Positions 11,793 to 57,562 of a stretch of 64,000 bases of DNA are shown in pieces. The notes below the pieces were generated by a model. That model saw only the letters and a program-made list of their open reading frames with translations. It was not told the DNA's origin and ran no database searches. A program made the translations under genes and the position numbers. Source of the DNA: a virus (lineage: Duplodnaviria; Caudoviricetes); IMG/VR virus record IMGVR_UViG_3300031555_003522, positions 128,001-192,000 of that record; one strand, 5' to 3'. The first letter of the stretch is position 1, and every line of letters begins with the position of its first letter.

Positions 11793-11804
11793 AACATTAT
11801 TATG
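11793..11804 (+). promoter_or_regulatory. Late-type promoter AACA-N6-TG
   Basis: AACA TTATTA TG with no downstream ORF. Confidence 0.6.
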
Positions 11805-12120
11805 AGGAGAAGCTGCGTCCGCCCATATAAAATAACGCCTTTGGAATTACCCCACCTCAGCATGTTTTGGCAGAGGTTGATTTCCATTTGAGTTTTACAC
11901 TCTAACGCCGTATTTTATACGCACCTTCTTCTGACATAGCGGCTCGGGTCCTATACGATATATTTGCCACTTTATATTATCGGTAGGATCGAGCATGTGC
12001 TGGTTTCTCAATTGTCCATATGGCGATCTCCTATGTATGTTACCTTCGTGATGCTTGCGGTAAAATAAAAGTGGCAAAAGTATCCCCCGGCGTAAATGGC
12101 GCCGGGGGATATTCTTTTTT
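11804..12120 (+). ncRNA. Putative ~315-nt structured non-coding RNA
   Basis: Promoter motif and terminator (12081-12120) bracket a GC-richer ORF-less region; stems 11805-11818/11919-11932 and 11942-11960/11978-11994; pseudoknot 11963-11973/12068-12078. Confidence 0.55.
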
Positions 12121-13078
12121 AATATTCATTCATTATATTATTTCCGTCTAATACAAGAGGCCATACCTGATTGATATTTCTATTTCTTGCTATCTGAGTA
12201 TGAATATCAATTGTAGTATCCTCTAATAAGAAATTATCTGGTCTAGGATAATTAGGAATACTAGCACCAGTAGTCGTATCGATTACGTCAAAACAACGCT
12301 GACCAGTAGCCTGATTATATCTAACTACAGTCTGTACATTAGGATTAGATTCCATACGCATTCTAGCCTGTTCCGGACTCAGTCCATTAGGAGTAATTCC
12401 ATTATTGGCAACCATCTCTACACCAGAAACGCCAGCGGCAGGATTATTTACACCAAGAGTGATATCCTGAATACTAGGAGCAGGAGGTGTATAAACGCCA
12501 ACAGGAGTATTTACAAATGCAGAATAGATATCCATCATCTTCATATCATCATTAGCTTCACTCTTATCCATTTTGAGAGTCTTAAATCTATTAAGATTAA
12601 GATTATGGGCCTGAGTAATAGTGCTGTTAAGTTCTTTAATAGCAGAGATCTTGGTGGATAATAAAGCACTAGCAGATGCTGTTAAATTAGTAAGGTAAGT
12701 GTATTTACCTTTAATAGTTTTGCTAGCGCGAATCTCATCAATATCTCCTTTAATAGCTGCACTCATTTCGTCAGCCTGGACTATAGCACCGCGTAAAAGA
12801 TTATTGGTTTCAGAGTACGAAGTGTGATAGTTTGTCTCTGCTATATCTGCACCGGGTACAGGATTTATCATTCCATTTATACCCAATTGATCTTCAGGAA
12901 TAACTGTGACACTAGCTTTCTTCTTTTTCTTGGATTTGGGATCAGGATCTACTGGTAAAGATGATGCTTCTTCAGAAGTAAAGAAACTAAAATCAACACC
13001 AATACTATCATTATCATTATTGGCTTCCGGTATGCTTTGTGCAATCATACCACCAAATAAAGAAGAGATCTGTTCCAT
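12119..13078 (-). CDS. Hypothetical protein (late promoter, possibly virion)
   Basis: ATG at 13078 after GGAGG; AACA-N6-TA motif at 13108-13119 on the minus strand. Confidence 0.8.
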   Translation of the reverse strand: MEQISSLFGGMIAQSIPEANNDNDSIGVDFSFFTSEEASSLPVDPDPKSKKKKKASVTVIPEDQLGINGMINPVPGADIAETNYHTSYSETNNLLRGAIVQADEMSAAIKGDIDEIRASKTIKGKYTYLTNLTASASALLSTKISAIKELNSTITQAHNLNLNRFKTLKMDKSEANDDMKMMDIYSAFVNTPVGVYTPPAPSIQDITLGVNNPAAGVSGVEMVANNGITPNGLSPEQARMRMESNPNVQTVVRYNQATGQRCFDVIDTTTGASIPNYPRPDNFLLEDTTIDIHTQIARNRNINQVWPLVLDGNNIMNEY

Positions 13079-13155
13079 TATATAAACCTCCATTATTTTT
13101 TTTTAATTATTAAGATGTTTAAGGTAATACTTTACGACATCACAAACATTATTTT

Positions 13156-13257
13156 AATCCTTAAAGGATTAGAAATCGCTCATAACGACTTTTTGATCTG
13201 CCCTGTGTATTTGAAAATATAGCCACGCTTCTGCCGGAGCGTGGCTATATTCTTTTA
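13156..13257 (+). ncRNA. Putative ~100-nt small RNA
   Basis: AACA TTATTT TA at 13145-13156; 5' hairpin aatcct/aggatt; unpaired middle; terminator 13216-13257; no ORF. Confidence 0.55.
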
Positions 13258-13270
13258 TCATGGACAATTG

Positions 13271-13302
13271 TATATTATAATAGTGCAAAAAACTATTTAT
13301 TA
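13271..13302 (+). promoter_or_regulatory. Tandem early (TATATTAT, 13271) and AACT-N6-TA (13291) promoter motifs upstream of polB-N
   Basis: Both motifs lie within 70 nt of the start codon. Confidence 0.55.
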
Positions 13303-13339
13303 ATATCCTAAACGTACGCAATTCTATCGAATTAGGAAG

Positions 13340-16300
13340 GTGACTCTAATGATTAAAGGTAGAAATCCTGGAGACAATATAACATTGATGAATACAATGT
13401 TTGTTCAAGGGACTGATCCATCTGATGGTAAATTCCATCAAACGATGACATTGGTTTATAAAGATCTTGATAGTGGTCTTAAGCATGTAGAGGAGATCGA
13501 CGATCCTGATTATGAATATTTTATGATTCACCCAGATAAGAGGGTGGATTATAATAGATTATTTGTATCTAAAGACGATGTAGAACGTATTGTAGTTCCA
13601 TATGGATCTTTGGAAAAAGATATAGCTTTGAGGCTTGGATTTAAAGAATTCTATTACGATAATATTCGTACTGGTAATAAAGGTGAGAATAGAAAACTTC
13701 ATATCCATCCTGATCTATTTAATAGTGATATGAATATAGAGGATCACTATAAATTCAGATTTGACAAGATGTATAGAAATGAAACTTGCCCTATAACAAA
13801 AGCATTTTTTGATATTGAGGTTGATAGTATTAATATGATGGGAGACTTCCCAGAACCTGGTGAATGTCCTGTTAATGCTATAACTCTTATTTGCCAAGAT
13901 GTTCATCAAGTATATACATTCTTGTTGAGAACTAAATCCAATCCTCAGATTATTGAATTTGAAAAGCAAGTTAATGACGGCTCTATATTTCCAGAATTAA
14001 CTAATTTCGTTATAGAGGCCGTTGGTGGTCCTCAAGTAGCAGCATCATATGAGATTAATTTTAATTACAATTTCTTATTCTATGATGAAGAAGATGAGAT
14101 TAATCTTATTAAGGATTTATTTGTAGCCATTAATATTCATAAACCAGATTTTGCACTGGCATGGAATATGGGCTTCGACGTTCCGTATATTATTCAGAGA
14201 ATAATAAATCTTGGATATGATCCTTGTGACATAATGTGCCATCAGGATTTTAAACGCAAGATTGTAAAATATATGGTAGATGAGAGAATGAAAAATGAAT
14301 TGGCTGAACGAGGAGATTATGCGGCAATATCTTCTTATACTGTATATCTCGATCAGATGATCCAATTTGCGTCTCGACGTAAAGGACAAAGTAAGTTTTT
14401 ATCATTCTCATTGGATTACATCGGTGAGCATATTGCTGGTGTAAGAAAGCTTGACTATAAAGCTATAACCACGAATATTGCAGAGCTTCCTTATAAATCT
14501 TATAAGACCTTTGTATTCTATAATATAATCGACACCATAGTTCAGTATTGTATTGAGATGAAGACAAAGGATATAGATTATGTATTTGGTAAGGCTCTTT
14601 TAAATAATACAAGATATTCTAAAACCCATAGACAGACTGTTTATTTGACTAATAGAGCTGCTAAAGTTTTTGATGCACAGGGATTTATTATTGGTAATAA
14701 TGCTAATAAGTTTAATAGCAAACCGGATGAAAAATTCCCTGGAGCGTTTGTAGCAGATCCTGAAAAAGTTAATAATACTTCTCGAATGCAAATTTATGGG
14801 TTATTTATAAACTTATTTGACAATTGTGTGGATTTCGATTAAGCAATAGTCGCTTAATTCAGTAATGGATTAAGAAAACTCCCTTAATTGCTGGAAACTC
14901 TAGCAGAAGTGATATAATTGCTTCATCCATATATTATAAATATGGTGCTAGACAATCAGCAGCCAAGAAAAATTGTAAAGGAGACTTTTATCGTGAGAAG
15001 ATATGAGTTCGAAATCCCTATAGATATAATAGATCCATCTATTCTATTGAATGGGGAAAGATTTGAATATATAACAGAAGATATTGTTCCTGGGGTATAT
15101 CCATATTATATGGTATCGAATTGTGGCAGAGTATATCACAGGTATCTTCAATGTATAATGAAACAGGGTTTAGAAACGAGTGGTTATCTATTTATAACTT
15201 TAGCTACTTGTAATGGGCCAAAGATAATTCAAATGAATAGACTAGTCTTAATGACATTTGACCCTAATCCAAATTGCCATGAACTACAAGCAAACCATAA
15301 AGATGGTAATAAGCTTAACAATTATCTCTATAATTTAGAATGGGTAACAAGATCTGAAAATATTATTCATGCATATGAAACTAAACTTCATATACCAAAG
15401 AGCAGTATTTCAGAAGATCAAGCTATTCAAATAGTAGAATTACTAAAAACCAATCAATATCAGTGTAAAGAAATAGCTATTATGATGGGTATTAATGAAA
15501 ATATAGTAAATTCTATTAAGAAAAAAGAATCTTGGAAAAGATTAACTAGAGATTGCAATTTTGATGCTAGACAAGGAAAGTTATATACGGATAATGATGT
15601 TCGTATTTTATGCGAATATTTTCAAAATAATCCAAAATTAGAAGGTCTAGAATCTAAAGCTTATGTACTAGAAGCTTTGATATCTTGTGGATTTGATAAC
15701 CCACAAGATAAAGTAGATACGGCAAGAAAGATCTATTCTAAAAAACATTATACTAGAATTTCTAAAGATTACAATTTTTAAGGTTCAACGACTATCGAAA
15801 GGATAATATGAGAGAAATACTCATATGAATAACCGAGTAGAGTAGAGTTCTAGTGAACTCGAAATGGGGAGCGTCCTATAAACGGTAACAGAATATAGGA
15901 TGATGATATAGTCTAATCTATATGGTGACATATAGCAGCTTACAAGCGGTATAAGATTAACGACCTTATATGAATAAAAATGTTTGCTTCGCTATACCCA
16001 TCTTTGATCCGTCAGTTTAATATAGCAGCTAATACTATTATTGGTAAGCTGATGATTAATGACAAAGTTCATGACAAAGAAAATATTTCTGATATGGATA
16101 ACTGGACTAGAGCTGGTGCATTTATGGAAGATATTCAGTCTCAGCAGTGGCTAGAGTTTACTTCCAGATGGTTTGGACTGCCAGATTATACTGTTCTGTA
16201 TCATGAAGTAGAGAGATTCTTTACGCAGATTGCTAATGCGTATCTCGGTCTTAGGGTCTACGAAAGAGATGGAACTATAGAGCCTATCACATTTGATAAA

Positions 16301-16441
16301 GATGGTCTTATGTGTGAGCCTATTGTATTTGAAGATAACGAAAGAAGAGAGGTTATAGATACCTATATCCCTCAGAATCTAAATAAATGGATGGAGTGGA
16401 GAAATCATGCAATTATGTATCCGAACCAGCAATTTAAATAG
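13340..16441 (+). CDS. polB: Family B DNA polymerase, N-terminal part (3'-5' exonuclease plus motif A); exons 13340-14839 and 15983-16441, 652 aa spliced
   Basis: ExoI FFDIEVD, ExoII WNMGFDVPY, ExoIII YNIIDT, FPGAFV; splicing gives DFD|FASLYPS (motif A). Confidence 0.93.
14840..15982 (+). mobile_element. Group I intron in polB-N motif A, carrying an HNH ORF
   Basis: P1 cgaU/gucg with U-G at the splice site; aagcaa pairs with 3' exon ttgctt (P10); core aattgctggaa, aatcagcagccaag, gttcaacgacta, gatatagtct; terminal G at 15982. Confidence 0.92.
14993..15781 (+). CDS. Intron-encoded HNH homing endonuclease (NUMOD4/I-HmuI-like)
   Basis: YMVSNCGRV, GYLFITL, NRLVLMTF, NHKDGNKLNN..NLEWVTRSENIIHA; probable GTG start at 14993 after AAGGAG. 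Confidence 0.9.
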   Translation: MRRYEFEIPIDIIDPSILLNGERFEYITEDIVPGVYPYYMVSNCGRVYHRYLQCIMKQGLETSGYLFITLATCNGPKIIQMNRLVLMTFDPNPNCHELQANHKDGNKLNNYLYNLEWVTRSENIIHAYETKLHIPKSSISEDQAIQIVELLKTNQYQCKEIAIMMGINENIVNSIKKKESWKRLTRDCNFDARQGKLYTDNDVRILCEYFQNNPKLEGLESKAYVLEALISCGFDNPQDKVDTARKIYSKKHYTRISKDYNF

Positions 16442-17207: not shown

Positions 17208-17212
17208 TAATT

Positions 17213-17252
17213 AAACCCTGGAGGCTTATACTCCAGGGTTTATTTTTTTTTT
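17213..17252 (+). terminator. Intrinsic terminator
   Basis: aaaccctggag / ctccagggttt plus long T run. Confidence 0.85.
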
Positions 17253-17268
17253 ATACCATTATACCTTC

Positions 17269-17280
17269 AACATTTATATA
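17269..17280 (+). promoter_or_regulatory. Late-type promoter AACA-N6-TA upstream of portal
   Basis: AACA TTTATA TA. Confidence 0.7.
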
Positions 17281-17305
17281 AATTCAAGTTTTGAGGTGAC
17301 TGAAT

Positions 17306-19717: not shown

Positions 19718-19724
19718 AAAGAAT

Positions 19725-19762: not shown

Positions 19763-19763
19763 A

Positions 19764-31913: not shown

Positions 31914-33017
31914 TTATACACCGAGATAGAACTTTAGAACTTCGCCCAAATCTACATCAAACTTGGATTCTTTACTATTAACCGAAACTTTATCTCCATT
32001 CACAGAAACTTTATAATCACCCAAAAGATAGCATTTACCTTCAGGCTTAGGCTTATGTGGTCTAAAATGACCACAAGTTTCGGGTTTACAAGTTCCGCTA
32101 TTATGAGAACAGCATGCACATACATTCTCTACGATATCACCCTCAGTTTCAGAAGATGCATCTCCAGATACATACTTGCAGTCTCTAATGCTATCCAGAA
32201 TAATTGTGGTGTAATGTCCACTAAAATCTTCAGAGGTATCAAAGATAAGCTTAACCTTCTTTACAGGATGAGCTTCCATGAAATCCTTTTTACTAGTACG
32301 AGATGTAATAATTTCATTATTACATCCAACAGTCTCTCTAACAAAGCCTTTACCATTTTTACCAGGCTCGTCTATAAACTCATGAATAGATTCGAGTTTA
32401 CCTCTAACCTCATAAATGGTATTATCTCTCTTAGAAAGATATGCGATATCATAAATATTTCCTACAGCTAAGTCTACATACTTAACAGCATCTTCAAGAC
32501 AATCATCGAAGAACTCTAAATGTATAACTATAGCCTTAACCATAGTTGCAGAAATTCCAAGAATCATAACTCTAGTTCCCCTTTCGTGTTTTGGTTTATC
32601 ATTAGGATCCATATTTTCTCTATTAAATCTAATATCAATAATATTATTTATTGGAATATAGACAGTAATAGGAGATTCATATTTATCAGATCTAGGAGGA
32701 TTCAAAACACAGTTGCAAATAGGAATAGATTTAGGATTACTCTTATTAGAGCAAGCCCTAACACAGGACTTGCATTCTACTGTGCAAGACTTATTATCTT
32801 CTCTATACTTGAATTGAATGCATGGCTCAATTCGATCTCCTTCACCATATATAGCCTCAACAAGTCCTACAAGATTCTTAACTGTACCAAGTTTGGTATC
32901 ATAGTATTTAATAATGTATTCCATACCAGGAAATACAAGTATTTCTCTTAAATCATATCCAGGATTAAATAAAGAAGATATTTTAATCCTAGCATAATTG
33001 GATAACTCTGATGTCAC
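31914..33017 (-). CDS. Hypothetical Cys-rich protein
   Basis: Probable GTG start at 33017, just after the upstream stop; the track start overlaps the upstream gene. Confidence 0.7.
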   Translation of the reverse strand: MTSELSNYARIKISSLFNPGYDLREILVFPGMEYIIKYYDTKLGTVKNLVGLVEAIYGEGDRIEPCIQFKYREDNKSCTVECKSCVRACSNKSNPKSIPICNCVLNPPRSDKYESPITVYIPINNIIDIRFNRENMDPNDKPKHERGTRVMILGISATMVKAIVIHLEFFDDCLEDAVKYVDLAVGNIYDIAYLSKRDNTIYEVRGKLESIHEFIDEPGKNGKGFVRETVGCNNEIITSRTSKKDFMEAHPVKKVKLIFDTSEDFSGHYTTIILDSIRDCKYVSGDASSETEGDIVENVCACCSHNSGTCKPETCGHFRPHKPKPEGKCYLLGDYKVSVNGDKVSVNSKESKFDVDLGEVLKFYLGV

Positions 33018-33018
33018 A

Positions 33019-34257
33019 TTACTTATTACGGTTGTGCATCTTTCCTGACTTGGATTTGTCCACAGACTCATTAAATTCATCCTCCTTATTGCGAATAAAG
33101 ACGATTGTATCGCAAATATTATTAATAAGTTCAGTGGCAAAATCTGTCTTGGCTTCCTGGGTGTGCTTAAGTACAATGATATTCTTAATCATGTAGTACA
33201 TATATGCAGCATCCACAACATTATTGGGATCAAGATTTCTACAAGATTCACAGATCAATATACAGAATTTGGTTACATCCTCAACAGTAAAGTCTAGATC
33301 AATTAACTTCTTATACTTCTCAGGAATCTCCTCTCCAGATTCTTCATGCATACTTGCAACTTGATGAGGTTCATTCATCAAGATATCTATAAGTATTTCT
33401 GGTATCTGCCTGACATCATTCATTTTAAAATTACTTCTGCTATTCAAAAGATTGAAACTGTCTAGGCATCTATTTCCTTCTCTCTCCCAACGACGAATAG
33501 CTTTACGTACTCGAGCATTAGTATCATAAGAATCCTTAGCAAAGCTAAAGGTATAAGATCTTATAAATGCATCTCTTACTTCTAATAAACGAGCAGCCTT
33601 ATCGGGAAATTCATCCTTAATCTTTTCTGCCATCTCAGGAATATATGTCTCCATTACATTCTTTGTATGCTCGCTATACAAATCAATTACAGAAGGCATC
33701 TCTAATGCTTCATCAATAGCTTTCTCGAGATCAACAAAAGCATCATCTATTTTACTATCAGATATAAACTCATCAAGTATCATACATGCTACACTATTCC
33801 AATTAGATGCAGGAATATTATTAGCTATTGCTAGCTGTCTAACAGTTTCCTTCATCGATTCAGGCATATTTTTATATACAGGATAATTTCTATCCTTTTT
33901 ATACTTAGATATTAGACTAACAAATTCCATCATTTCCTCTTCATTCATCGGATTATCAGATTCTGGCTGAGGAATAATAGAATTTTCAGGAATCTTTCCT
34001 CCATTTTCAAAAACTTCTTTAATAGCTTCTTCCATAGAGGTCTTTCCTGTTCCATTTTCGCCCATAATTAGTACTGGATGACTTGTCATACCAGTTACAA
34101 ATGCAGGCTCTAATTCAGCATCGGGATTAATCTCTGTATTTACTTTTGCTTCGATAACTTTTTCATCATTAGATTCAGATGCTGTAGTAATAACAGCTTC
34201 AAGCTGCTCATCGGTCAATATAGTGGGATTTTTATTTTCCATTTCATTTTCCTCCAT
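33019..34257 (-). CDS. Hypothetical acidic helical protein
   Basis: 412-aa ORF in an operon. Confidence 0.8.
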   Translation of the reverse strand: MEENEMENKNPTILTDEQLEAVITTASESNDEKVIEAKVNTEINPDAELEPAFVTGMTSHPVLIMGENGTGKTSMEEAIKEVFENGGKIPENSIIPQPESDNPMNEEEMMEFVSLISKYKKDRNYPVYKNMPESMKETVRQLAIANNIPASNWNSVACMILDEFISDSKIDDAFVDLEKAIDEALEMPSVIDLYSEHTKNVMETYIPEMAEKIKDEFPDKAARLLEVRDAFIRSYTFSFAKDSYDTNARVRKAIRRWEREGNRCLDSFNLLNSRSNFKMNDVRQIPEILIDILMNEPHQVASMHEESGEEIPEKYKKLIDLDFTVEDVTKFCILICESCRNLDPNNVVDAAYMYYMIKNIIVLKHTQEAKTDFATELINNICDTIVFIRNKEDEFNESVDKSKSGKMHNRNK

Positions 34258-35882: not shown

Positions 35883-38800
35883 TTAGAACTGAATCATATT
35901 TGTAGAATTATTATTAGAGCCACCTCTAAATATTCCGATAGATTCTATCGGGAAACCCTTCAGATTGTTATTAATGATTTCATCATAATTAACAAATGGA
36001 AGTATCCAAGCAGGAACTGGTTCATTTAGAGGAATAGCTATAGCATCTATTCCAGTAGCATACTCTTTCTGCTTCATAAGCTCCACAGCCTTTTCATATA
36101 CATAAGGATGAGACTCTCTAATTCTATCAATATTCTTAGGGGTTATATTAACTTTAGCAACATCGATAGAATTCCGAATACTCATATCCAATGCTTCTGT
36201 CCCAGGCTCATGAAGAGCATTATAAGCTTGAGATGCTACTATACCTTGAATTCTCATGGGATTTTCATATGCTGATAGAGATTTTACCTTAAGAGGCTTA
36301 AAGAATTTCTTCTCACCACTCTGAATAGATTGATATATTTTCTTTTCCTCTTTAGCCAAATCTCTAAGAACAACAATAGGATCTATAGATTCCACATTCA
36401 ATATATCTTCTGCAAGTATTCGCTTTAAGTCAGCCTGAATAGTTGGATTGACTGTAGACTTAACAAATACTTCCATGCCTTTTGCATCAATAGATTTTGC
36501 ATCAGGAACCTGGTTTCCTTCCTGAAGCTCAACCTTATATGCATAGTGTTTCTTTGCATGACTAGATAGAAGAACACGCTTGAATCGTTTATTACTTTAT
36601 ATCACTATAAAGACTAGACTATATCTTCATCTTAAATACTATTACCATATTTGAGATGCTCCCCATTTCGAACTCTATCAAGAGCCCTACTCTACTCGGT
36701 TATTCTCATAGATCTTTCTTCTATGATATCCTTTCGATAGTCGTTGAACCTTCCTCTATTGAGGCTTGGCTGCTGATTGTCTCAATGAGAGTTCCCAGCA
36801 ATTAAAGGAGATTCTACATAATGTCACCACTATGCAGCCCTATTCTTAAGGAATTCGTTCTTCATTGTAATTAGGCATGCACGCTCATTATCAGAGTGAG
36901 CATTTGTGCAGTATCTATCCATAAAATCATTCAAAAGAATACCTACACAATATGCAAGAATATTTATAATGGAATATCTTAATCCATCCTGAGGTATAAT
37001 TACCATTGGGTCAACTAATCTATCCATCTCAATCATATCATCATCAACAAAACTATATTCTGTAACCTTTCCAATTACAGGTTCTGTCTTTATTTCTCCA
37101 TCATCGATAAACGTAGCAGCATCTACATTTTGTGTCTTAATCTTCATAGGAATCTCACAACACATTTGTCTTACATACTGATACCATCCATCAAATGATA
37201 CAATTGCACTCGCTTTGTTCATATAGGATCGCAACTCCATACAGTTCTCTTATGAACTTCTATATGTTTCCATATAGGCCAGACTATATCATCACCCTAC
37301 TATGGGTGCCTCCCATTTCGATTTAAAAGGTCTTATTTGGACATCGCCTTACCCCATTATAAGCTTGGGCTCTACTCTACTAAGTTCATCTATAGATGCT
37401 TTTCGATAGTCGTTGAACGTTCCTCTGTGCGAGGATTCGCTGCTGATTGTCTTTTATAAATTAATAAGAAGATTTTCCAGCAATTAGAGAGGTTATCGAC
37501 GCATGTTTCCATGCAAAGGGACGTAAATATCTTCATCCGTGTCCTGAATAATACTGACAGATCTGACTAGAGAATCCATCTTAGCCAATCTATCAATAAT
37601 CTGCTTATTATAATATACATACTCATACAAGATATCTGTTAGAGCTTTAAGCGGCTCTATAATATTCTCTGGAGGCTCATTAGGATCCATAAATGGAGCA
37701 TCGAGACTCTGAAGTATGAATAGTATAGCTTGTGTGACAGGAGCGTTATCAATGAAATGATATAGATTATTCTTATAGAAGAGTCTATCGAGTTCATCTT
37801 GATTGAGCTTAGATAGAATTTCCCAAATTATATGCATTTCATCTTCACTAGGCACCCATCCATATCCAGTACTAGAAAGTAACTGGAAGAAGGTTTCTTC
37901 AATAGAAGCATGAATAGTAATAATACCATTACTATTGAAATGATGCTCTTCTGTAAGCACCGTATGAATAAATTCAACGAGTTCATTCATGGAACTCATT
38001 GGTACATTATTATTTAAGAAAGATTCTAGGAATAGCGCGGCAGCACTATTGCAAGATCTACCTTGAGTTGTAACACTGGAAGCAGTATAAAGATTATAGA
38101 AAATACAAGAATACTGCCCAGTAGCTCCATAAACAATATATTCAAGTGGTTCATTACTCCACCCAGTTCTCTTATGAACTTCTTTAGCTTTCACCAAAGT
38201 TTAGACTATATCTTCATCCATAAAGGATGTCCAGTACAGGATCTCATGATTTGAGACCTCTTAGTCGTTGAACCTTCCTATTTCTAGGCTCGGCTGCTGA
38301 TTGCCTATTGTACCATCCTTCTACTATTTCCATTTAGGCAAGAAGGCTTTAAGGTGTCCCAGCAATTCTCTGGATTTAATCGATACCATTACTGGTAAAG
38401 TGGACCTTAGTTAATCCATTCATCTGGAGCTTTAAAAATACCATCATTTTCATGATGGGTTAGACTATATCTTCATTCATTTAAGAATGGTCTCTGTTTC
38501 GAGCATTAAGCCCTACGTCTTTCGACTAGTCGTTGAACGTTCCTCTAAACAAGGCTTCGCTGCTGATTGTCCAATCTCTATATTTTCAAACATTCACGAT
38601 TACTCTTTCAAGTTGCGTTGTAGTTATAGAGCTCTAAGGAGTTTCCAGCAATTAAGAGACTTTAACGACACCAATGGATTTAATTTAGCGTCGATCTTAC
38701 GCAAGTACCTCATATCGCTATGAGGGCTAGACTATATCTTCATCTATATCTCTATTACCAAGATATAGATGCTCCCCATTTCGAGTTCACTAGAACTCTA

Positions 38801-40364: not shown

Positions 40365-40409
40365 AAATAATGGGATAGCTTAAAGCTATCCCATTTTTTC
40401 TTTTAGATA

Positions 40410-40425
40410 TATATTATTAGTATGA
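40410..40425 (+). promoter_or_regulatory. Early-type promoter TATATTAT-N5-TGA
   Basis: Exact motif upstream of the RNAP beta' gene. Confidence 0.7.
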
Positions 40426-40481
40426 AAGTACTTTATTATTCTTCCTGAAACAATAAAGTAACGCAGAAAGGAGACTGACAT

Positions 40482-42701
40482 ATGGAAAGTGCAAAAGAAT
40501 TAGGGTGTTTAAGATACCCAGAAAACTATGGTATGTATGCCGACATCATAGAAGGTAAGCAAGTCTGTATTCATACAGATGATCTTACTACTGGCACTTG
40601 GGACAGACATTATACATCTGTGTTAAATCTATTTAAAGATGGAATTGCTACAGAAGAAGTCCAGGGTGCCTTTATTCATGTACACTTTATAGATGGAGTA
40701 GATCTTGAGATTGCTCTTACAGATTATTTGCTTAATCTTATTATGTGGAATATGCTTATAAGAACGGGAACCCTTATCTGTTCTTATCATGTATTTTTCG
40801 CCGATGAGATCAAGAAAGATACAATTAAGGATTATATTGATAAGTTTCTTATTGATGAAAATCGTAAGAGATATACTAATATGGAACTTAATAACATCAT
40901 TGACGATACTCTTTATAGAATTCATGATATAGATGAATTCGCATTCTTCTTTGCAAATACTGTTAATCTTGAAGATAATGTATTCTTGATGCAGAGATGT
41001 GAAGAATTCAATGAATGTATGCATGCAGATTTGTCTGGTGTAGCTATTGAAGATGTAAAGTCTGTTGGCATGGGATATGCTAATAAAGCTATCCATATTA
41101 TGAAGAATGCTAGTCAATATCTTGGATTCGATCACTGCTTAGCGGATGCATGTAGAGCATCAGAAGGCATTAACCCTAAACAGTTTAAAGAATTTACTAT
41201 TAATATTGGTAGTAAACCTGATGGTCATGGAGGTATCTTCCCAGCCATTATCAACAAGTCTTTTATTAATGGTGGTGTTTCTACACCATTAGACTATTTT
41301 ATTGAGTCTTCTACAGGTCGTACAGCTCAGATAATCAAGTATAATAACGTTGGTTCTTCTGGTCATTTTGCACGGCTTCTTGGACTTAATAACATGGATT
41401 CTTATTTGAATGAGAATCCAAATTATGACTGTTATAGTCGTAATTTCTTGGTCATCACTATCAAGGATAAGAAGACCCTTAAGATGCTTAATAACAGATA
41501 TTATAGACTCAATCCTAGGGGTAAAGAGTTGTTAATATCTGCATCGAAAGATAAGCATCTTATAGGAAAAACAATTTATCTTAGATCTCCAGTTACTTGT
41601 GCATCTGCTGCAAGAGGTCAGGGAATCTGTTATAAATGCTATGGTGATTTAGCTTATACTGTCTATGATGCAGAGGTGCAAGCTGGTGTCAATATAGGCC
41701 GTATTGCTAGTGAGACACTATCATCTAGCCTAACCCAGAAATTGTTGTCTGCTAAACATCTTCTCGAAACATTTGCAGAAAAGGTTTCTTGGGTTAGAAA
41801 ATTTAATGAACTCTTTGAAGTTGAAGGTAATGTGATTAAGCTTAATTCTGAAATTGAATATAAGGGATTAAGATTAATAATTGATCCTGAAATGATTGAA
41901 TTAGAGAATGAAGAAGATGACGATCTTGGATTTTCTGATGATGATGAGGAAGGCGGCGCACCTATCTATAATGAGTATATTGTAGATTTTGATGTTATCG
42001 ACGAGAATATTCCTGAATATCATCATATCTCAAATGATAAAAACGTTAAACTTTATATCTCTAATGAATTGAGATCTATTATTCGTAGAAAAGGTGAGCC
42101 AATAGAGGGAAAGCATTTTATAGATTTCACAGATATTAAGGATGCTCCTATATTTATTATGCCCATTCAGAATAATGAACTCTCTAAAACTCTTGAGCAC
42201 CTTGAAGGATTGCTTAATAAAAATAATACGATGAAAGGTATGAATCTAAACCAGCTTCTGCAGTCTCTTATTGACACGGTTATTGAAGGTAGACTTAGTG
42301 TAGCATCTACTCATCTTGAAGTAATTCTGTCAAATCAGGCTCGAGATCCTGATAATATTCTCGAAAAACCTAAGTGGTTCTTGTTTAATCCTGGTTATGA
42401 GATTCTATCTCTTAATAGGGCTCTTACATTGAACCCTGCAGTTACTATATCTTTGAGTTATCAAAAGGTAGGTAAGTCTCTATATAGTCCTATTACATTT
42501 AAGAAGAAAGGTTCTTCTTTTATGGATCTATTCTTTATGGAGAAACCGCAATATGCAATTAGTGGAAAAGAGCCTCCTGTTAAAGATGAATATATTCCTA
42601 CTCCTGGAGAGCTCTATGAACCTATTACCTTTATTGATGATCCAGATAAAGTTACAGTATCTGCTCAATCTCTTTCTGATGATGAGGAGGAAGAGGAATA
42701 A
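40482..42701 (+). CDS. Phage RNA polymerase beta' subunit, C-terminal part (probably the non-virion RNAP)
   Basis: Bridge helix GRTAQ...SGHFARLL; LRSPVTC...GICYKCYG; trigger loop TQKLLSAKH; HLEVILSNQ. Confidence 0.92.
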   Translation: MESAKELGCLRYPENYGMYADIIEGKQVCIHTDDLTTGTWDRHYTSVLNLFKDGIATEEVQGAFIHVHFIDGVDLEIALTDYLLNLIMWNMLIRTGTLICSYHVFFADEIKKDTIKDYIDKFLIDENRKRYTNMELNNIIDDTLYRIHDIDEFAFFFANTVNLEDNVFLMQRCEEFNECMHADLSGVAIEDVKSVGMGYANKAIHIMKNASQYLGFDHCLADACRASEGINPKQFKEFTINIGSKPDGHGGIFPAIINKSFINGGVSTPLDYFIESSTGRTAQIIKYNNVGSSGHFARLLGLNNMDSYLNENPNYDCYSRNFLVITIKDKKTLKMLNNRYYRLNPRGKELLISASKDKHLIGKTIYLRSPVTCASAARGQGICYKCYGDLAYTVYDAEVQAGVNIGRIASETLSSSLTQKLLSAKHLLETFAEKVSWVRKFNELFEVEGNVIKLNSEIEYKGLRLIIDPEMIELENEEDDDLGFSDDDEEGGAPIYNEYIVDFDVIDENIPEYHHISNDKNVKLYISNELRSIIRRKGEPIEGKHFIDFTDIKDAPIFIMPIQNNELSKTLEHLEGLLNKNNTMKGMNLNQLLQSLIDTVIEGRLSVASTHLEVILSNQARDPDNILEKPKWFLFNPGYEILSLNRALTLNPAVTISLSYQKVGKSLYSPITFKKKGSSFMDLFFMEKPQYAISGKEPPVKDEYIPTPGELYEPITFIDDPDKVTVSAQSLSDDEEEEE

Positions 42702-43436: not shown

Positions 43437-43489
43437 TTGTATATTATCAAATTGAATAAGGATGATTAATCATCTTTGTTTAATATAAT

Positions 43490-43605
43490 ATGCGGGTAGG
43501 AGCATGGTATACTCATTCTCCTACCAGTTCCTAACCCGTGGTAGAATGTGGCTACCCGGGATCGCCTGGTTATCCGGGCGACCGTTAATTACCAGCATAG
43601 CTGGA
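43490..43605 (+). promoter_or_regulatory. Structured GC-rich 5' leader
   Basis: Hairpins ggtaggag/ctcctacc, tcgcctgg/ccgggcga and ccagc/gctgg downstream of the early motif at 43440-43455. Confidence 0.45.
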
Positions 43606-43629
43606 TTATAAATAAAGGAGAATGAAATT

Positions 43630-43851
43630 ATGAGCGAATTTGAAAAAACTAATGAAAGTAATCTTACCGAAGCTATGATCATCGAAGATGAAAAGGTTAC
43701 CGCCAAAAAGAAGGAAACATGGGATATGATTTTTCTCATTTGTCCTAATCAGGCAGAAGTCCTAATTAAGGCATACGAAGAAAAAGGCCCTGAGTTTCTG
43801 AGCAAGGCAAAAATTATTATTGAATCAGAACCCGCTGAAGCTCCGGCATAA
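43630..43851 (+). CDS. Small acidic early protein
   Basis: AAGGAG RBS; terminator at 43897-43933. Confidence 0.7.
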   Translation: MSEFEKTNESNLTEAMIIEDEKVTAKKKETWDMIFLICPNQAEVLIKAYEEKGPEFLSKAKIIIESEPAEAPA

Positions 43852-50302: not shown

Positions 50303-50527
50303 ATGGAGGGACAGGTTTTGTTAATTAAGACTAGAGTTATTGATGAATTTATAGTACGTCTCATTAATGATGATCATCGCAATATGTGGATTGGTAAGTT
50401 TGATACGTCTACTATTGAAAATGTATATGCCGATACGGAAGGAGATCTGTATAAAGAGATCTATAATGCTATTGCAAAGTATAAAGGCCTTCCCATTCCA
50501 TATCCTGATGATAAAGAAGAAGAATAA
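50303..50527 (+). CDS. Small early protein with a HicB-like pattern
   Basis: TATACTAT-N5-TGA at 50248-50263; TTG 50318 after GGAGG is an alternative start. Confidence 0.6.
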   Translation: MEGQVLLIKTRVIDEFIVRLINDDHRNMWIGKFDTSTIENVYADTEGDLYKEIYNAIAKYKGLPIPYPDDKEEE

Positions 50528-50563
50528 GAAGGTAGAGATAAAACTCTACCTTCTTATTTTTTT

Positions 50564-53144
50564 TTATTTTATGAATTGAGCAAGATTACCGGCTAATACA
50601 GAGTATGGTTGTTCATCTTCATCATTATAGAAGTTATCAAATACTTCATTAGGAATAGTTTGCACTTGTGAAGACATCTGAGGTATCATCATTTTATACC
50701 TATCAGATATAGATTTTTGTACAGCCTTATCAGATAGCAATCTTGTCATGCATTCTTCGTCCTTTTGTTGCTCTTGACGCATCCAATCTTCATAAAGAAG
50801 TTTACCAGGAGCATTTTCCATTGCTTGAACAGCTTGCTGGATTTCTTCATTATCGCTTACATCAAGATCGGTAACAACTTCTTCATTATCTTCATGTATA
50901 TCTACAACAGCCTCTTCAAGATCAGCATCTGTACGGAGCACCCTCTTTGTGATACCCCAATTGTTCATCAAATCTCCACCGTTGTAATATACGAACAATC
51001 CCCACAGCCAAGAGAATACCTGGTCATCGTGAGTATTACTCGAATGCTCAATCTTACCATTCTTCTTAACCTCTAGGCCGCATAATTCTTCATAAATTGT
51101 AGGAGATATAATCTTATCTTTATGATATTCAACACGGTCTCTCAGAATTTCCATTAGGTTCTCGCGTTCTGCCTTTGTAGAATCGGAGCCATATACTTTA
51201 GTCTTTTGAGTGCGTTTATGTATCGCAGCACCAACTATTCTCTCTTCGATAACTTTATCTTTTATAGTATAGAATAGATTCTTTCTAATAGAAGTCTGTA
51301 AAAGACGCGCGATTACTGACGCGCCGAAACCCATTTGTTTATTACTGGACGCAACTCCAATAACCTTGGCTCATTCCAAGCAGTTCCATTACAGAACCTG
51401 TGCAGATCATTTGTCATTCTAAACAGCCGTTAGAACGGGATTTTTCTTCCGCCATTAGCTTGCGGTTCTACTCTCTCGTCAAGAGATGATCGTTGAACGT
51501 TTATCTTATAAGATGTGGTATTCTTATAAGATATTTCGCTGCTATACATGGACTTGTCAGTGAATATTTAGGATTTAACCTTGTATTCATCCTTACTACT
51601 TTTTTATGCTTTCGCAACCATCACGCTCATCTTTACAGATCACGTTGTGGTGAGTAAGGCTCTTAACCCACTTCATAGCAATTAACACCTTGAAACATAA
51701 AGATCACTCTTTATGCTGCGATTGCTGTATAAGCTACGCCGTTTCGTTCGATATTTACTACTGCATTAGGCATCCATTTTGAAACAATGTCATGGATTAC
51801 CATTGCTAGTTCTGGGGTTGATATAAAATTACTATTAAGCTCTGCTGTTACTCTTGTGCTGAAAGAATCAATTATAGTAATTGCAGAGGAGTCTCTTTGA
51901 TAACCGCCAGAGACGTCAACTCCAATAATGGGCGGATACTTCATATTAATCTTCTCATAAATTTTGAGTTCATACTTATTGAGAAGAAGCACTGTATTGA
52001 TAGGATGCTTAAGTAGACCCTTAATAGTATCCAAATCTTCTGCTCTGAAAGGAGAGTTCTCAGAAGAATTAGACCATTCAAGCAAAACTTCTCGACGGAT
52101 TGCATCCCAGTCTTTACGCATTGTAATACAGAGATCTCTAAACCACTGTTCGCTCTTACCGAGTTGCTGGTATGTATACTTAATGTAAATAAAGTTAGAG
52201 TTGGTATTACTATTGACGATATCATAAATCTGTTCCTTGGTAAGGTCATACCATCTTTCACTGAAGGGAGTAGCATTCTCCTTCATATTGAAAGCTTCTA
52301 CGCCTTCATCTGTAGTAAGCATACCAGGAGTAGTAGTAACCAGCATTCCATAAGGACTACCATTTCTCTTAGCATTCTGAGAAGCAGTATTAAATGCAGG
52401 AACCATGTTAGTATAAATAATGGAGTTATATTGAATAAAGCCATACTCGTCGATATAGATAATCGGAGTTGTACGACCACGCATCAGGCTAGCTGCAGCA
52501 ACTTTATTTCTTGCAGAAGCAACGGTTCTGATACGGTTATTATTTACAGGATGCTGTAATGTCTCAACGTTATTCTTACCCTTGATTCTAGATCCATCAG
52601 GAGCAAATGCTTGATCCATCTTGAGCCAAGAAGGTAATAATGCTCTAAGTTCTCGAATACGCTGTAAGTTTAATTTAGAGTCATCAAGCTTCTTATTAAG
52701 GAAGCTCATTTCAGCATTGGCTGTGCCAAAATTAAACAGATACAAATACCAGCAAAGACTAGACATAGTCTTACCAGTCTGACGAGGCATCTCTAAGAAT
52801 GTATTCAAGTTAAGCATTAGGGCAAAAATTAATGCAAGGTTACCTCTAGAGAGCTCAAATTTAACACCTGTAGCTTGGCCAGAATCTGGAATTCGTACTA
52901 TTTCTCTAAAGAAGTACCAAGGGTTAAAGATACACTCTCTAAGAACCTTAGTCTTCATCATAGCACTTAAATTAGGATCATATGGATCTATTCTTGCTAG
53001 ATCAGGATCCAATAAAACTAGCATAAATCTATTGTTTTCTATACCAGCATCTTTAAGATATCTGTGTACTTCTAGAAAACTTTTATTGGTTGTACTCATA
53101 TGATAATACACTGTGGTCTGAGTTTGACCATACATAATAGCCAT
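50564..53144 (-). CDS. terL: Terminase large subunit; exons 53144-51738 and 51331-50564, 724 aa spliced
   Basis: Walker A MPRQTGKT, RG...IYIDEYGF, TTTP, IIGVDVSGG...DSS, IERNG|GFG, HDDQV; AACT-N6-TA at 53180-53191 (-). Confidence 0.92.
51332..51737 (-). mobile_element. Group I intron in terL (ORF-less, 406 nt; boundaries could shift by 2 nt)
   Basis: aattgcta / tagcagcgaa (P4), gttcaacGATCA / aaaTGATCt (P7 variant), ends ...aaatG; removal restores the reading frame. Confidence 0.85.
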
Positions 53145-53243
53145 AGAAGTTCCTCCTTTCATATGAGTAGCAAAGATATTAATTATAAGTTGACTTCTAT
53201 ACCCCTTATTCGAGCTAATGGTAATTAGAGAAATGAATGATAA

Positions 53244-53259
53244 TATATTATAAATATGA
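53244..53259 (+). promoter_or_regulatory. Early-type promoter TATATTAT-N5-TGA
   Basis: Exact motif upstream of a 4-gene operon. Confidence 0.7.
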
Positions 53260-53303
53260 AATAATATGATACTCAAGTATCAAAATAAAAGGAGAATGAA
53301 ACT

Positions 53304-53975
53304 ATGCCAAAAATAAACTTTTTAAGGCCAGTAGTAATACAAGAACACGTATTTCTAAACCAAAAAACTGACCCAATTTTTAATTGGAATGTGGTTATGG
53401 CTGTCAATGCTATTGTAGATGACTATGTATATGCTCTCACGTTATCTAAGAATATGCTTAAAGTTCTATACCGTCTCATTACAACGGGAGATTATACTCC
53501 TAAGATTTCTATCATCGAAAACTTTGATAAGAGCCGGGTGTCTTATGATGAAAGCGATGATGGACTTTATGGATTTATTAGATATCATTTTTCCGATGAC
53601 TGGCAGAAGTATACAGATGAAGATGATGAATTCTATAATAATACCATCCTGATCTTTATGAGCACATATATAGATCTTCAGGAATATGTTTTTGATGACA
53701 GCGATCGTGATAAATACGAATATTATGAGGCTAGTGAAGTAGATTGTGATATCAGTAATGAAGGATCTTATTTCATAAGCTATTTCGAGGGTCTTTATTA
53801 TGCCATTTCTCTGAGTGATTTTAGAGACGGAGTAGTTGGGGTATCTAATACATTACATGGAGCAGTAGCAAAACTAGAGAAGTATCTGTCTGATACTTTT
53901 AACCTCCCTGAATGTATTTATTTTGATTGCGATGTTAAGGAGGGTAACGTATGGATATCAAAGAAGGAGCAATGA
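53304..53975 (+). CDS. Hypothetical acidic early protein
   Basis: AAGGAG RBS. Confidence 0.75.
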   Translation: MPKINFLRPVVIQEHVFLNQKTDPIFNWNVVMAVNAIVDDYVYALTLSKNMLKVLYRLITTGDYTPKISIIENFDKSRVSYDESDDGLYGFIRYHFSDDWQKYTDEDDEFYNNTILIFMSTYIDLQEYVFDDSDRDKYEYYEASEVDCDISNEGSYFISYFEGLYYAISLSDFRDGVVGVSNTLHGAVAKLEKYLSDTFNLPECIYFDCDVKEGNVWISKKEQ

Positions 53976-54307
53976 CCTATATCGATCTATTCAGACGACA
54001 CGGATGGGTTGTAGATATCTTAGGCCATAACGACTTCATTGCTTATAATGATGTCTACTTCGTTGCATTTTCTGTATATAACAGATATGCATCTGCAGTA
54101 TCTTATCTTCTTTGCGATAAAGAAGAATTTATTAGAGAATGGAAAAGTAAATCAAGCTACCAAGCTATTGGTAGCTTTGCTTTCCATGATTATATGCTTG
54201 GAAGAGCACAATCTAAATTCAATCAGTTTGGAGGAATCGCTAATCACGATCATGACACATTTGAGATCGAGAGATGGCTTATCAAATTGGAGGAGAATAG
54301 AAAATGA
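53951..54307 (+). CDS. Hypothetical early protein
   Basis: Overlapping operon gene; ATG 53972 is an alternative start. Confidence 0.7.
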   Translation: MDIKEGAMTYIDLFRRHGWVVDILGHNDFIAYNDVYFVAFSVYNRYASAVSYLLCDKEEFIREWKSKSSYQAIGSFAFHDYMLGRAQSKFNQFGGIANHDHDTFEIERWLIKLEENRK

Positions 54308-54861
54308 ATACAGAATTGAAAAAACCTATAGCATATACCTTTATTCGTCGCTCCTATATGATGAATAGTTCAAGGCCCTTTATCAGCTCTAAGGCTAAGC
54401 TTTATAAGGATAAAAACAACTGTAGCAAGGCTTTGGATAAAATCCTTAATCATGATTATGCAGTAATATCTAAACAAGCCGAGTCTGAATGTTGGGCCCA
54501 TAGGTTTATCGACATCGACGAGTGTTCTGGTAGAGCTGAGTATGAGATCCGTGGATATGAATCTGAAGATCACGATAGCGAATTCGTACTTCTATATCAA
54601 TATATGATTTATCCTATCTATCATTATGCAGATTCTGATCGGTATTGTTATAGAGGCTATTATATAACTGGAAGGATAGTTGAAGATCCTGAGTATGGCA
54701 TCGATAATGAATATGTAGCGATCAGTTATACTGGAGATGATCTTCCCATTCCGGCAGCTAATACAATCAGTGTTCTGCTCAATAATATCAATAACTTTAT
54801 TGAGTACATGAAAGCAATTGGAATGCAGACAGAAAAGGAGGAAGAGTATGATCCAGATTGA
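54304..54861 (+). CDS. Hypothetical early protein
   Basis: ATGA overlap; GGAGGAG RBS. Confidence 0.75.
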   Translation: MNTELKKPIAYTFIRRSYMMNSSRPFISSKAKLYKDKNNCSKALDKILNHDYAVISKQAESECWAHRFIDIDECSGRAEYEIRGYESEDHDSEFVLLYQYMIYPIYHYADSDRYCYRGYYITGRIVEDPEYGIDNEYVAISYTGDDLPIPAANTISVLLNNINNFIEYMKAIGMQTEKEEEYDPD

Positions 54862-55336
54862 TGAGGATGAAGTAATCGTTGGTAAGCGATTGTTCTCTGC
54901 CGGATTCAATGATGATGGTTCTGTTAAACAAATTGATAGTACTGATGTTATTTATGAATCTTTTGAGGAAGCATTCGAGGACGTTAGTAATCCCCTTAAT
55001 ATTCTCTATGGTGGTATGACTGATGAGAGTGTATCTGATGAATTTAAGGGAATTATCACGTTTAAAAGGAGCGACAAAGATATTGACAATGTCGGGCATA
55101 GCATGATTCTTGATATCTATAAACATGGCAGAAAGAAAGCTCAATATTGCATCCTTCCTGTAGTTATTAATAAACTGCAGATAATTGCTTATAGAGGAAT
55201 GTTTATTCAGCCATTTGATATCGGTAAGTATCTTATTTGTAGGCGAGATCATAAAGAGCTCTCTGTGAAGAAGTCTCTTGATCTGGCATTTTCATTTATC
55301 GATACCTATCTGCTCATTAATCCGGAATGGCAATAA
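54848..55336 (+). CDS. Hypothetical early protein
   Basis: ATG at 54848 after AAGGAGG. Confidence 0.7.
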   Translation: MIQIDEDEVIVGKRLFSAGFNDDGSVKQIDSTDVIYESFEEAFEDVSNPLNILYGGMTDESVSDEFKGIITFKRSDKDIDNVGHSMILDIYKHGRKKAQYCILPVVINKLQIIAYRGMFIQPFDIGKYLICRRDHKELSVKKSLDLAFSFIDTYLLINPEWQ

Positions 55337-55376
55337 ATAAAGAGGGAGTCTTTCGACTCCCTCTTATTTTTTTTTT
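55335..55376. terminator. Bidirectional terminator
   Basis: agagggagtc / gactccctct with A and T flanks. Confidence 0.85.
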
Positions 55377-56214
55377 ACTTATTAGACATCGCTTTAGCCA
55401 TTTCTAAGCAGAAACCTTCAATTTCATTATGGATATGATTCTCCAGATTAACAACAAAAATGTCACCAGTCTTAGCAACAAGCTGCACTTTGCTACCACC
55501 GTCAATCAGGGTAGAAGATTCATACATAAAGTCAATCTGATTCAGTAAAGACTTAATATTTGCAGACTCGCTCTTAATGTAGGAAAGAACACTTTCATTT
55601 GTAATAGGAATCAATCTGCCATTATTATTTATACGCTCTATTTCAATCTCAGTACTAATAGTGCCAGACTCAGTGACTAATCTAGTGGTATAAGCATGAG
55701 GATGAGACGGGTAAATAACCCTATCCCATGTAATAACGCGCAGATTCTTAACGACATTACGACCATGAAGATTCTCTAAAGAACCAAGAGCTCTCAAAGA
55801 CCAGCTAGGCAGAACACCTTCGCGAAGATCCTGATCAAACTCTTCACCCTTTTCATTATTAGTGCCCTTGAACTGAGCCATGACATTATTACCATCCATC
55901 CAAATCTTGGTAAAGCGAGCAACAGTGTTATTAGGATCAATAGTCTGCTGACGCATCATAGAAGTGTCCATAGGATGGCCATTCTCAGACAGCATATTAC
56001 CAGTACTTAAGAGCTCAATAGTACGAGGACAGTTAATTTCTCTAAGCAGATCGGGCTGTAAATAACAGCGGCCGTTACGATTTTCTTCTTCTGCAGTCTG
56101 GATAATACCCTCTCCAAGAACTCTCTTGCCAGTATCGGAAATAACCTTAGCCTGGGGGATTTCAATAGGAGCACTTTCCAGAATGACAAAACCAATAGTT
56201 GGTTTATTAGACAT
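55375..56214 (-). CDS. Prohead protease (T4 gp21-like)
   Basis: NRNGRCY, ENGHP, SWSLRALGSL, ITWDRVIYPSHPHAY; AACA-N6-TA at 56244-56255 (-). Confidence 0.9.
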   Translation of the reverse strand: MSNKPTIGFVILESAPIEIPQAKVISDTGKRVLGEGIIQTAEEENRNGRCYLQPDLLREINCPRTIELLSTGNMLSENGHPMDTSMMRQQTIDPNNTVARFTKIWMDGNNVMAQFKGTNNEKGEEFDQDLREGVLPSWSLRALGSLENLHGRNVVKNLRVITWDRVIYPSHPHAYTTRLVTESGTISTEIEIERINNNGRLIPITNESVLSYIKSESANIKSLLNQIDFMYESSTLIDGGSKVQLVAKTGDIFVVNLENHIHNEIEGFCLEMAKAMSNK

Positions 56215-56382
56215 AATATAAACCTCCCGAATTTTAATTCAATTATCGATATGTTGGCTAATTTGATTGCTTTAGGCTATTTGAATTTATTTATACAAAT
56301 GTGAAACTTATCTTATATGAAAATATATTATAAATATGAGTAGACAAAAACCACAACTACTAATGACAAGGAGAATGAAATC

Positions 56383-57135
56383 ATGGGCAACTATAAGTTT
56401 TTCACAAAAGAGGAAGATCAGCTTATCCTGGATAACTATCAGACTATGGGATCTAGAATCACAGATCTATTTCCTAATAGATCCAAGGCATCTGTTATGG
56501 GACGTGCAAATAAGTTAGGAGTTCATATCAGCAAAACTGTTTCTGATTGGACAAATGAGGAAGAAGATATCCTTAGAAAGCACTATCCTAAAATTGGAGT
56601 TAAGGTAATAGATATGCTACCGAATAGAAGCGAGTATGCTATTAAAAATCGCGCTTCAGTTTTAAAGATTAAAGGTCCTTCTGCATGGACCAAGGAAGAA
56701 GATTATCAGATAAGAAAGCATAATATGGAAATTAGTAAAGAACTGATGGAATTGCTTCCTGGTAGATCTGAAGGTGCTATAAGAATTAGAATTAAGCAAC
56801 TTCAGACCGCTAAATTGACATCTAATAAAGATAAATATACTTATATGAGTTATCCTCTCAATATTTATATATTGGTATTTGGAACTCATAAAGGATATGA
56901 TAAAATCTATCCTGAATTTGATAGCATAATTACTAAGCATCTTGATGCGATTATTAAGCATAATCCCGATAAAATTGATTATGCAACCAAGATGGTAGAA
57001 GCATTTGATTTGAGGTTTAAGAAGCATCTCCCGGCATATGATATTTCAAGGGAACTAAATATATCTGAAGATATGGTAAATAAACTTTGTGTACAATGCA
57101 TCAATATCTTTAAACGCACAATGGTTAAACACTAA
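56383..57135 (+). CDS. Putative DNA-binding regulator: three Myb/SANT-like repeats plus a sigma-region-4-like HTH
   Basis: (F/W)T.EE...(L/I)...P.RS...(I/V)..R repeated three times; C-terminal LRF...DISRELNISEDMV; early motif at 56324-56339. Confidence 0.7.
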   Translation: MGNYKFFTKEEDQLILDNYQTMGSRITDLFPNRSKASVMGRANKLGVHISKTVSDWTNEEEDILRKHYPKIGVKVIDMLPNRSEYAIKNRASVLKIKGPSAWTKEEDYQIRKHNMEISKELMELLPGRSEGAIRIRIKQLQTAKLTSNKDKYTYMSYPLNIYILVFGTHKGYDKIYPEFDSIITKHLDAIIKHNPDKIDYATKMVEAFDLRFKKHLPAYDISRELNISEDMVNKLCVQCINIFKRTMVKH

Positions 57136-57201
57136 TATGATAAAAGGCTCTGAAAGGGGCCTTTTATTTTTTATTAAATAAAAAATATTAAACTTATGTA
57201 T

Positions 57202-57441
57202 AAGAGAGTAATCACGATATATTGAGCAAGACATTCAGGGCTTGGGAGATATATACTTTTTAAAATATATAGGAAGTGGTGAGCCTGTATATTTTTCAGA
57301 TTACTCTTTCATTCTTTATTGTGCGTGGAGAACACAATAAAGAGATGAGGCGAAATGATTATGGAGTATAATGATGAAAGGATCTTTTATACAAGATCCG
57401 GATTATTACAGATGCCTGATCAGCATCTGTAATAATTTTTG
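57202..57441 (+). ncRNA. Putative structured RNA, or structured leader plus a 25-aa ORF (57355-57432)
   Basis: AACT-N6-TA at 57191; 5' end aagagagtaatc pairs with 57299-57310; further hairpins; terminator 57401-57441. Confidence 0.4.
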
Positions 57442-57465
57442 TTTTAATCATCTTAACATATCATT

Positions 57466-57562
57466 GAGCTGAATTATGGTGGATATTTGGTTTGGCATGG
57501 TTGAAATTTCCTTTCGTAAAATGAGTCTAGTGTCTTTTTAGGCACTAGACTCATATCTTTTT
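57466..57562 (+). ncRNA. Putative ~95-nt small RNA
   Basis: AACA TATCAT TG at 57455-57466; terminator 57521-57562; no ORF with an RBS. Confidence 0.5.

Follow-up and report, generated by a model that had tools for sequence, protein, structure and literature searches.

Predicted late small RNA genes in an AR9-like jumbo phage, one of which co-varies with the start of an HU-like gene across diverged relatives

Jumbo phages that carry their own RNA polymerases are described as being controlled almost wholly at the level of transcription, and the small RNAs (sRNAs) catalogued in such phages are, in the literature searched, not tied to a target. Eleven sRNAs were reported for 201phi2-1 with no target or mechanism assigned (PMC11512511), misc_4 of phiR1-37 has host-target predictions only (PMC4848604), and late antisense start sites were mapped in AR9, likewise with no target or mechanism assigned (PMC5312081). 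Here we analyze a 64,000-nucleotide (nt) stretch, the window, of virus record IMGVR_UViG_3300031555_003522, in which three units that lack an open reading frame (ORF) lie on the + strand behind late-type promoters: unit 1 (11804 to 12120), unit 2 (13156 to 13257), and unit 3 (57466 to 57562). The units resemble the RNAs of 201phi2-1, phiR1-37, and AR9 in layout, as short ORF-less transcripts predicted in a phiKZ/AR9-like phage, and use the same late promoter as AR9, and no sequence homology between those RNAs and the units was shown. We conclude that units 1 to 3 are probably genes for late, trans-acting, base-pairing sRNAs and that unit 2 probably lowers, late, the translation of an HU-like protein encoded by the gene that begins at position 3852 (gene 3852).

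Base-pairing sRNAs with similar properties have been described elsewhere. The RoxS/RsaE-type sRNAs of Firmicutes (PMC10433868, PMC8216469) have, as the units appear to have, their own promoter and terminator, short imperfect pairing to Shine-Dalgarno sequences and start codons, and probably several targets. Unlike that type, the units are phage encoded, would be read by a phage polymerase, have a phage gene as predicted target, form bulged duplexes of 25 to 35 bp, lack an Rfam match, and keep position and target from clade to clade although their sequence turns over. The c4 antisense RNA of P1 and P7 blocks translation of a phage mRNA around the ribosome-binding site, as proposed for unit 2, and also varies in step with its target between phages; c4, however, serves immunity in temperate phages (PMC12197685), whereas here the phage is a lytic-type jumbo phage, the target lies 9 kb away, expression is predicted to be late, and the unit belongs to a set. 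PreS of lambda and VpdS of VP882 are, like the predicted units, phage-encoded trans-acting sRNAs and are active during lytic growth, but they depend on Hfq in Proteobacteria, belong to temperate phages, and in the case of PreS target a host gene (PMC12197685). Because they sit in intergenic gaps, with the 3852 target 9 kb from unit 2, the units are not cis-antisense RNAs of the sar or PAK_P4as15 type.

The source record is a virus of 207,861 bases, of which the window covers bases 128001 to 192000 (G+C content, 34%). Its beta′ gene (40482 to 42701) is 25 to 30% identical to those of PBS1/AR9, phiR1-37, and Staphylococcus jumbo phages, and the phage is an AR9/PBS1-like jumbo phage of approximately 208 kb. 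Sequencing runs containing its DNA were from animal gut and faeces samples, with no RNA run among those listed, and contigs from those runs revealed strain variants across positions 3600 to 13500. The mapped late promoter of AR9 is AACA-N6-TA/G, and its early promoter ends in TATTAT-N6-G (PMC5312081). In the genome analyzed here, AACA-N6-TR was found upstream of 34 of 180 genes, against 12.8 genes in shuffled sequence and 6 when the opposite strand was read, and N5 and N7 spacings gave no enrichment. The AACT form of the late motif (28 of 180, versus 13.0 in shuffles) and the early motif (29 of 180, versus 3.5) were likewise enriched at the exact spacing. Each unit is preceded by an AACA-N6-TR element of the AR9 late type with a predicted +1 at a purine (11793 to 11804, 13145 to 13156, and 57455 to 57466), as an initial annotation of the window had reported. 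That annotation had also given each unit a terminator of its own; hairpins followed by T runs were found for all three, but the one behind unit 1 is common to a convergent gene.

Unit 2 is a predicted sRNA of approximately 100 nt located between two divergent genes, with an AACA-N6-TA promoter (13145 to 13156, + strand), a pairing segment (13178 to 13214, +), and a terminator with a 16-bp stem (13217 to 13257, +). Since the terminator is sited between divergent genes, it serves only unit 2, and its stem shows compensatory changes at four pairs and no broken pair among five sequences. The fold z-scores of units 2 and 3 are due to their terminators, as the bodies alone scored −0.9 and +0.3, respectively. 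Gene order around the 324-amino-acid gene that separates units 1 and 2 is fixed in 289 relatives. Of approximately 19 distinct relatives, all but two show the unit 2 design, a late promoter followed by a short ORF-less body and a terminator, at the corresponding place; at that of unit 1, a longer unit or an array of two to six units is present in nearly all. No coding frame is conserved in the units, which show indels and sequence turnover in relatives. Reading the opposite strand as peptide coding was rejected, as the frames there have the lengths given previously (3, 4, and 16 codons), which are tiny, and are not kept. The units matched no family of Rfam 15, nor tRNA or tmRNA, at threshold with covariance models and ARAGORN.

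To rank targets, each unit was scored against the 180 gene starts of the phage genome, with pairing energies from a nearest-neighbour script written for this analysis and from ViennaRNA cofold instead of IntaRNA. The start of gene 3852 ranked first of 180 for unit 2 by two energy models, with approximately 30 bp formed between the pairing segment and positions 3826 to 3857 (+), a site that comprises an A-rich stretch, the Shine-Dalgarno sequence, and the start codon. When the best duplex of each unit was compared with the best of shuffled RNA, the margin over chance was slight in every case (P = 0.043 for unit 2, 0.10 for unit 3, and 0.12 for unit 1). The initial annotation had proposed four pairings, namely, unit 1 with the beta′ start, unit 2 with the starts of genes 3852 and 43630, and unit 3 with gene 53304. 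All four can be drawn where it placed them, but best partners within a single genome stand so little above shuffles that none of these pairings could be trusted from the window alone.

Comparison between phages separated the candidates. In an unguided scan of five genomes, 3852 ranked first for unit 2 (z = 3.7; corrected P = 0.007). Moreover, when the units of all phages were scored crosswise against the 3852 starts of all phages, sRNAs paired better with their own start than with foreign ones (P = 6e-5 by cofold and 1.4e-4 by a loop-limited model). Across nine clades, each sRNA paired best or nearly best with its own 3852 start (P = 1.0e-4, or 7e-5 with other representatives), and the advantage held when the window's clade was left out (P = 3.3e-4) and when all cluster units of 11 phages were joined (P = 3e-5). 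Applied to 11 orthologous starts of neighbouring genes, the test yielded no P value that was significant after correction (lowest, 0.009 to 0.03). Apart from the pair L004/L006, sRNAs of different clades could not be aligned, which indicates that the pairings are largely separate sequence solutions. In relatives G009 and L024, where the unit 2 equivalent misses the 3852 start, the long equivalent of unit 1 pairs with it instead (P = 0.013 and 0.033), and both units of L007 and one unit of the G010 array placed their own target first of 17. By comparison, gene 43630 ranked 39/40 in a close relative with an almost identical sRNA, and that pairing is not conserved. Only the pairing of unit 2 with 3852, of the four proposed, is well supported by these comparisons, and it is an imperfect complementarity over the initiation region that appears to have been kept in evolution. 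With its own predicted promoter and terminator, no coding frame, and this kept pairing, unit 2 has those features of a trans-encoded base-pairing sRNA that can be read from DNA. A whole clade seems to keep a predicted sRNA against a core gene of its own, each lineage having arrived at a different sequence for it.

Gene 3852 (3852 to 4466, +) is the first gene of an operon that continues to the beta subunit of the late polymerase and SbcC; the N-terminal part of the beta subunit, belonging to the non-virion RNA polymerase, is encoded by the third gene (5200 to 6975, +). Upstream are a late-type promoter (AACT-N6-TA; 3760 to 3771, +), kept in most relatives, and, just downstream of it, an early-type promoter (TATTAT-N6-G; 3775 to 3790, +). 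Between them and the target site, directly in front of the latter, stands a strong leader hairpin (3795 to 3821) that is kept with changed sequence in most relatives and is followed by a few T residues; it may stabilize or attenuate the message. The 204-amino-acid product had no sequence match in Pfam, PF00216 included, PHROG, or the PDB. Its predicted structure (pLDDT, 92) consists of two helix-helix-three-strand(-helix) repeats, and the model aligned over its full length with single-chain IHF (Z = 5.8), and in its second half with Hbb (Z = 4.6) and HU. A further match (TM, 0.59) was to an Atlas cluster of which 95% is PF00216. The structures that ranked above single-chain IHF, left unnamed by the search tool, were microtubule inner proteins and a chain of the Mycoplasma gliding motor. 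In AR9, a gene annotated as HU lies two genes ahead of this polymerase subunit, and a profile search for the 204-amino-acid family in AR9 and phiR1-37 found no member. The protein is predicted to have a tandem HU/IHF-like fold.

Unit 2 probably acts as a brake on a message that is still being made. The non-virion RNA polymerase of the phage would transcribe the units late, as a dispersed set of about eight, and, once built, would transcribe unit 2 while continuing to transcribe the 3852 operon. Because early and late promoters both drive that operon, message and brake alike would come from the late polymerase. Unit 2 RNA would pair with approximately −26 to +5 of the 3852 mRNA, an open stretch from the leader hairpin to the second codon, and the duplex would block ribosome loading, such that less HU-like protein would be made while its message was still produced. 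The first gene might then be uncoupled in its expression from the later genes, the beta subunit and SbcC among them, or the operon might be damped by polarity. The benefit is perhaps less nucleoid protein on DNA bound for packaging. Such an incoherent loop would be a device for late tuning and not a switch, and units 1 and 3 would use the same chemistry.

Several observations weigh against this model. Within the window's clade, unit 2 was nearly unchanged, its core being almost invariant in close relatives whose 204-amino-acid proteins are 87 to 88% identical, whereas its target start has diverged, with a loss of duplex strength from −27 to −18 in L101 and to −11 in L003; other targets must therefore constrain unit 2. 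Also within that clade, the mirror duplex was equal to or better than the real one, and thus G-U pairs do not favour RNA pairing there. The unit 2 equivalents of G009 and L024 and a unit of the distant phage L010 did not pair with 3852, within a single genome the best duplexes of the units were near chance, and the HU-like assignment depends on a predicted model with moderate scores. For the wider set, no phage gene recurred in comparative scans as a target of unit 1 or unit 3, and the equivalents of unit 1 in three distant phages showed no pairing with the beta′ start. The strength of the mirror duplexes might instead mean that the likeness resides in DNA, the tracts being inverted scraps of gene starts or protein-binding sites and the promoters and terminators merely insulators. 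The terminator of unit 1 would be needed by the convergent gene in any case, but that of unit 2 is fed by the unit 2 promoter only. Moreover, the real duplex was stronger than the mirror in six more distant phages (L004, L006, L016, L019, L025, and L026), and the matches contain bulges, are different from clade to clade, and shift from one unit to another. We consider a likeness confined to DNA very improbable and favour base-pairing sRNAs.

Unit 1 (11804 to 12120, +) is a GC-richer, ORF-less unit of approximately 315 nt (44% GC), with an AACA-N6-TG promoter (11793 to 11804, +), a predicted +1 at 11804, and a two-way terminator (12080 to 12120) that also ends convergent gene 12119-13093. Relatives have the AACA or AACT form of the promoter at the same place, and position, size class, and ends are kept, while the sequence turns over so fast that unit 1 cannot be aligned beyond its ends even among close relatives. 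It contains several anti-start modules and, with its terminator, folds better than shuffles (z = −3.4). A long-range pairing of 10 bases (11964 to 11973 with 12068 to 12077) is partly kept in L001 only. One module (12015 to 12043, +) pairs with the beta′ start, among others, and the beta′ region (40409 to 40486, +), with an early promoter (40409 to 40424), a late promoter (40449 to 40460), and the gene start, is a candidate target. In the window's genome, the beta′ start ranked 14 of 180. Unit 1 is unalignable among four close relatives, and in every one of them some part of it, at a differing position, pairs with the beta′ start (−22 to −23.5 kcal/mol); over the four, the combined rank of beta′ was 4 to 8 of 180, with other genes ahead of it or alongside. 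Feedback of unit 1 on beta′ is thus compatible with the predicted pairings, and unproven. Some sets of long-unit equivalents favoured their own 3852 start (P = 0.02 and 3e-4), and the window's own unit 1 does not pair with that start, which ranked 139 of 180.

In the initial annotation, the units were read as an early-to-late switch made of RNA, in which early genes are shut off and unit 1 acts back on beta′. Its statement that the partners lie behind early promoters holds for 3852 and 40482, early promoters precede the three best partners of unit 2, and 27 of 34 units paired better on average with early than with late starts, to which the four relatives with a beta′-pairing stretch can be added. 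Both 3852 and beta′, however, carry late promoters as well, which points to late tuning of translation and not to a clean switch, so that the term was an overstatement. Moreover, beta′ was not the leading partner of unit 1 and was lost as a partner in distant phages, targets 43630 and 53304 failed, and enrichment for early genes in the strong tail was not significant (P = 0.14). A lean of the units toward early-promoter genes is weakly supported, and we regard a switch as improbable.

Unit 3 (57466 to 57562, +) is a predicted sRNA of approximately 97 nt with an AACA-N6-TG promoter (57455 to 57466, +), a body that is a near-ideal mirror of a translation start, and a terminator hairpin with T run (57521 to 57562); a close relative keeps the body and has a different hairpin as terminator. 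Depending on scoring, gene 53304 ranked second or first of 180 for unit 3, but in the relative that keeps unit 3, a nonhomologue with a different start occupies that place, and the proposed pairing was rejected as not conserved. Gene −3725 (298 amino acids), outside the window, scored well in two versions and was not confirmed. Two exact matches to the mirror image of unit 3 were set aside as ordinary gene starts of unrelated phages. A host scan with the mirror image gave no match, which shows little because real pairing is imperfect, and the number of 16-mer exact-pattern matches for unit 2 was within chance for the collection scanned.

The RNAs could be real and yet be aimed mainly at host mRNAs, or mask many ribosome-binding sites, with the phage matches partly incidental. 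Many modules are idealized translation starts without a close match among the genes of their own phage, the mirror image of unit 3 corresponds to real starts of unrelated phages, and the phage partners of unit 3 and of the unit 2 core do not fully account for how well these are conserved. A host-directed or broad masker would not, however, follow a single phage gene from clade to clade and pass over 11 neighbouring ones. We think it an unlikely account of the set, and for units 1 and 3 it is a possible one.

Units of this kind recur across the relatives. A translation-start mirror (shuffle P up to 0.05) was present in 26 of 70 units predicted across eight genomes, compared with 23 of 450 other intergenic stretches (Fisher P = 1.5e-12), in a list that was compiled automatically, contains false units, and includes a few tracts that may face small unannotated genes. 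A genome-wide pass found about eight late units with anti-start tracts in the window's phage, of which five lie outside the window (in window coordinates, −86281 and −7027 on the − strand and −35243, −12208, and −6155 on the + strand). Unit −35243 favoured early gene −74282 in two genomes, not significantly after correction. Tandem arrays of three to six promoter-body-terminator units occur at the place of unit 1 in G010 (32839 to 33608), L014/L016/L019, and L020/L021; in L013 and L028, that place is a 1.4-kb gap with repeated blocks and several units, compared with the usual 0.3 to 0.4 kb. A tentative reading, which we would not yet put at even odds, is that AR9-like gut jumbo phages possess a regulatory layer of their own, with at least eight late sRNAs per genome whose modules are rewritten fast and swapped between units while their aim is kept on set phage genes. 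Some units would then be tandem arrays and others RNAs of 200 to 370 nt that chain several anti-start modules, and the targets may be the HU-like gene, with RNA polymerase subunits perhaps among them and host genes a further possibility.

A unit of the same layout can be recognized in AR9. The mapped late start at 115851 (L117, 15852 to 15940, +), filed as antisense to g142, opens an ORF-less unit of approximately 85 nt with a C-rich tract and a two-way terminator. It was also found in PBS1, Internexus, and Goe21 and, by position, in BpSp, where the unit is C-rich too. Its best partner was the start of g213 (P ≈ 0.05), in a pairing not kept in BpSp. The analysis provides a named RNA-target pair that is open to testing and, in a cultured phage, a similarly arranged unit whose start is mapped.

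Three further features of the window were observed. Just upstream of unit 3 lies a fourth late unit (57191 to 57444, +), absent from the initial annotation, of approximately 243 nt with five hairpins (z = −6.1). It has GGAG/GGA motifs in or near loops, no anti-start tract, and no Rfam match, and is 96% identical in a relative where the genes on either side share 45 to 62% identity; it could be a CsrA-type or sRNA sponge. The 73-amino-acid gene 43630 is preceded by a GC-rich, hairpin-rich leader of approximately 190 nt (43440 to 43630), possibly a structured cis element. Lastly, the DNA polymerase gene (36595 to 38696, −) contains four Rfam group I intron matches, and in the close relative L103, the gene is uninterrupted and encodes 703 amino acids.

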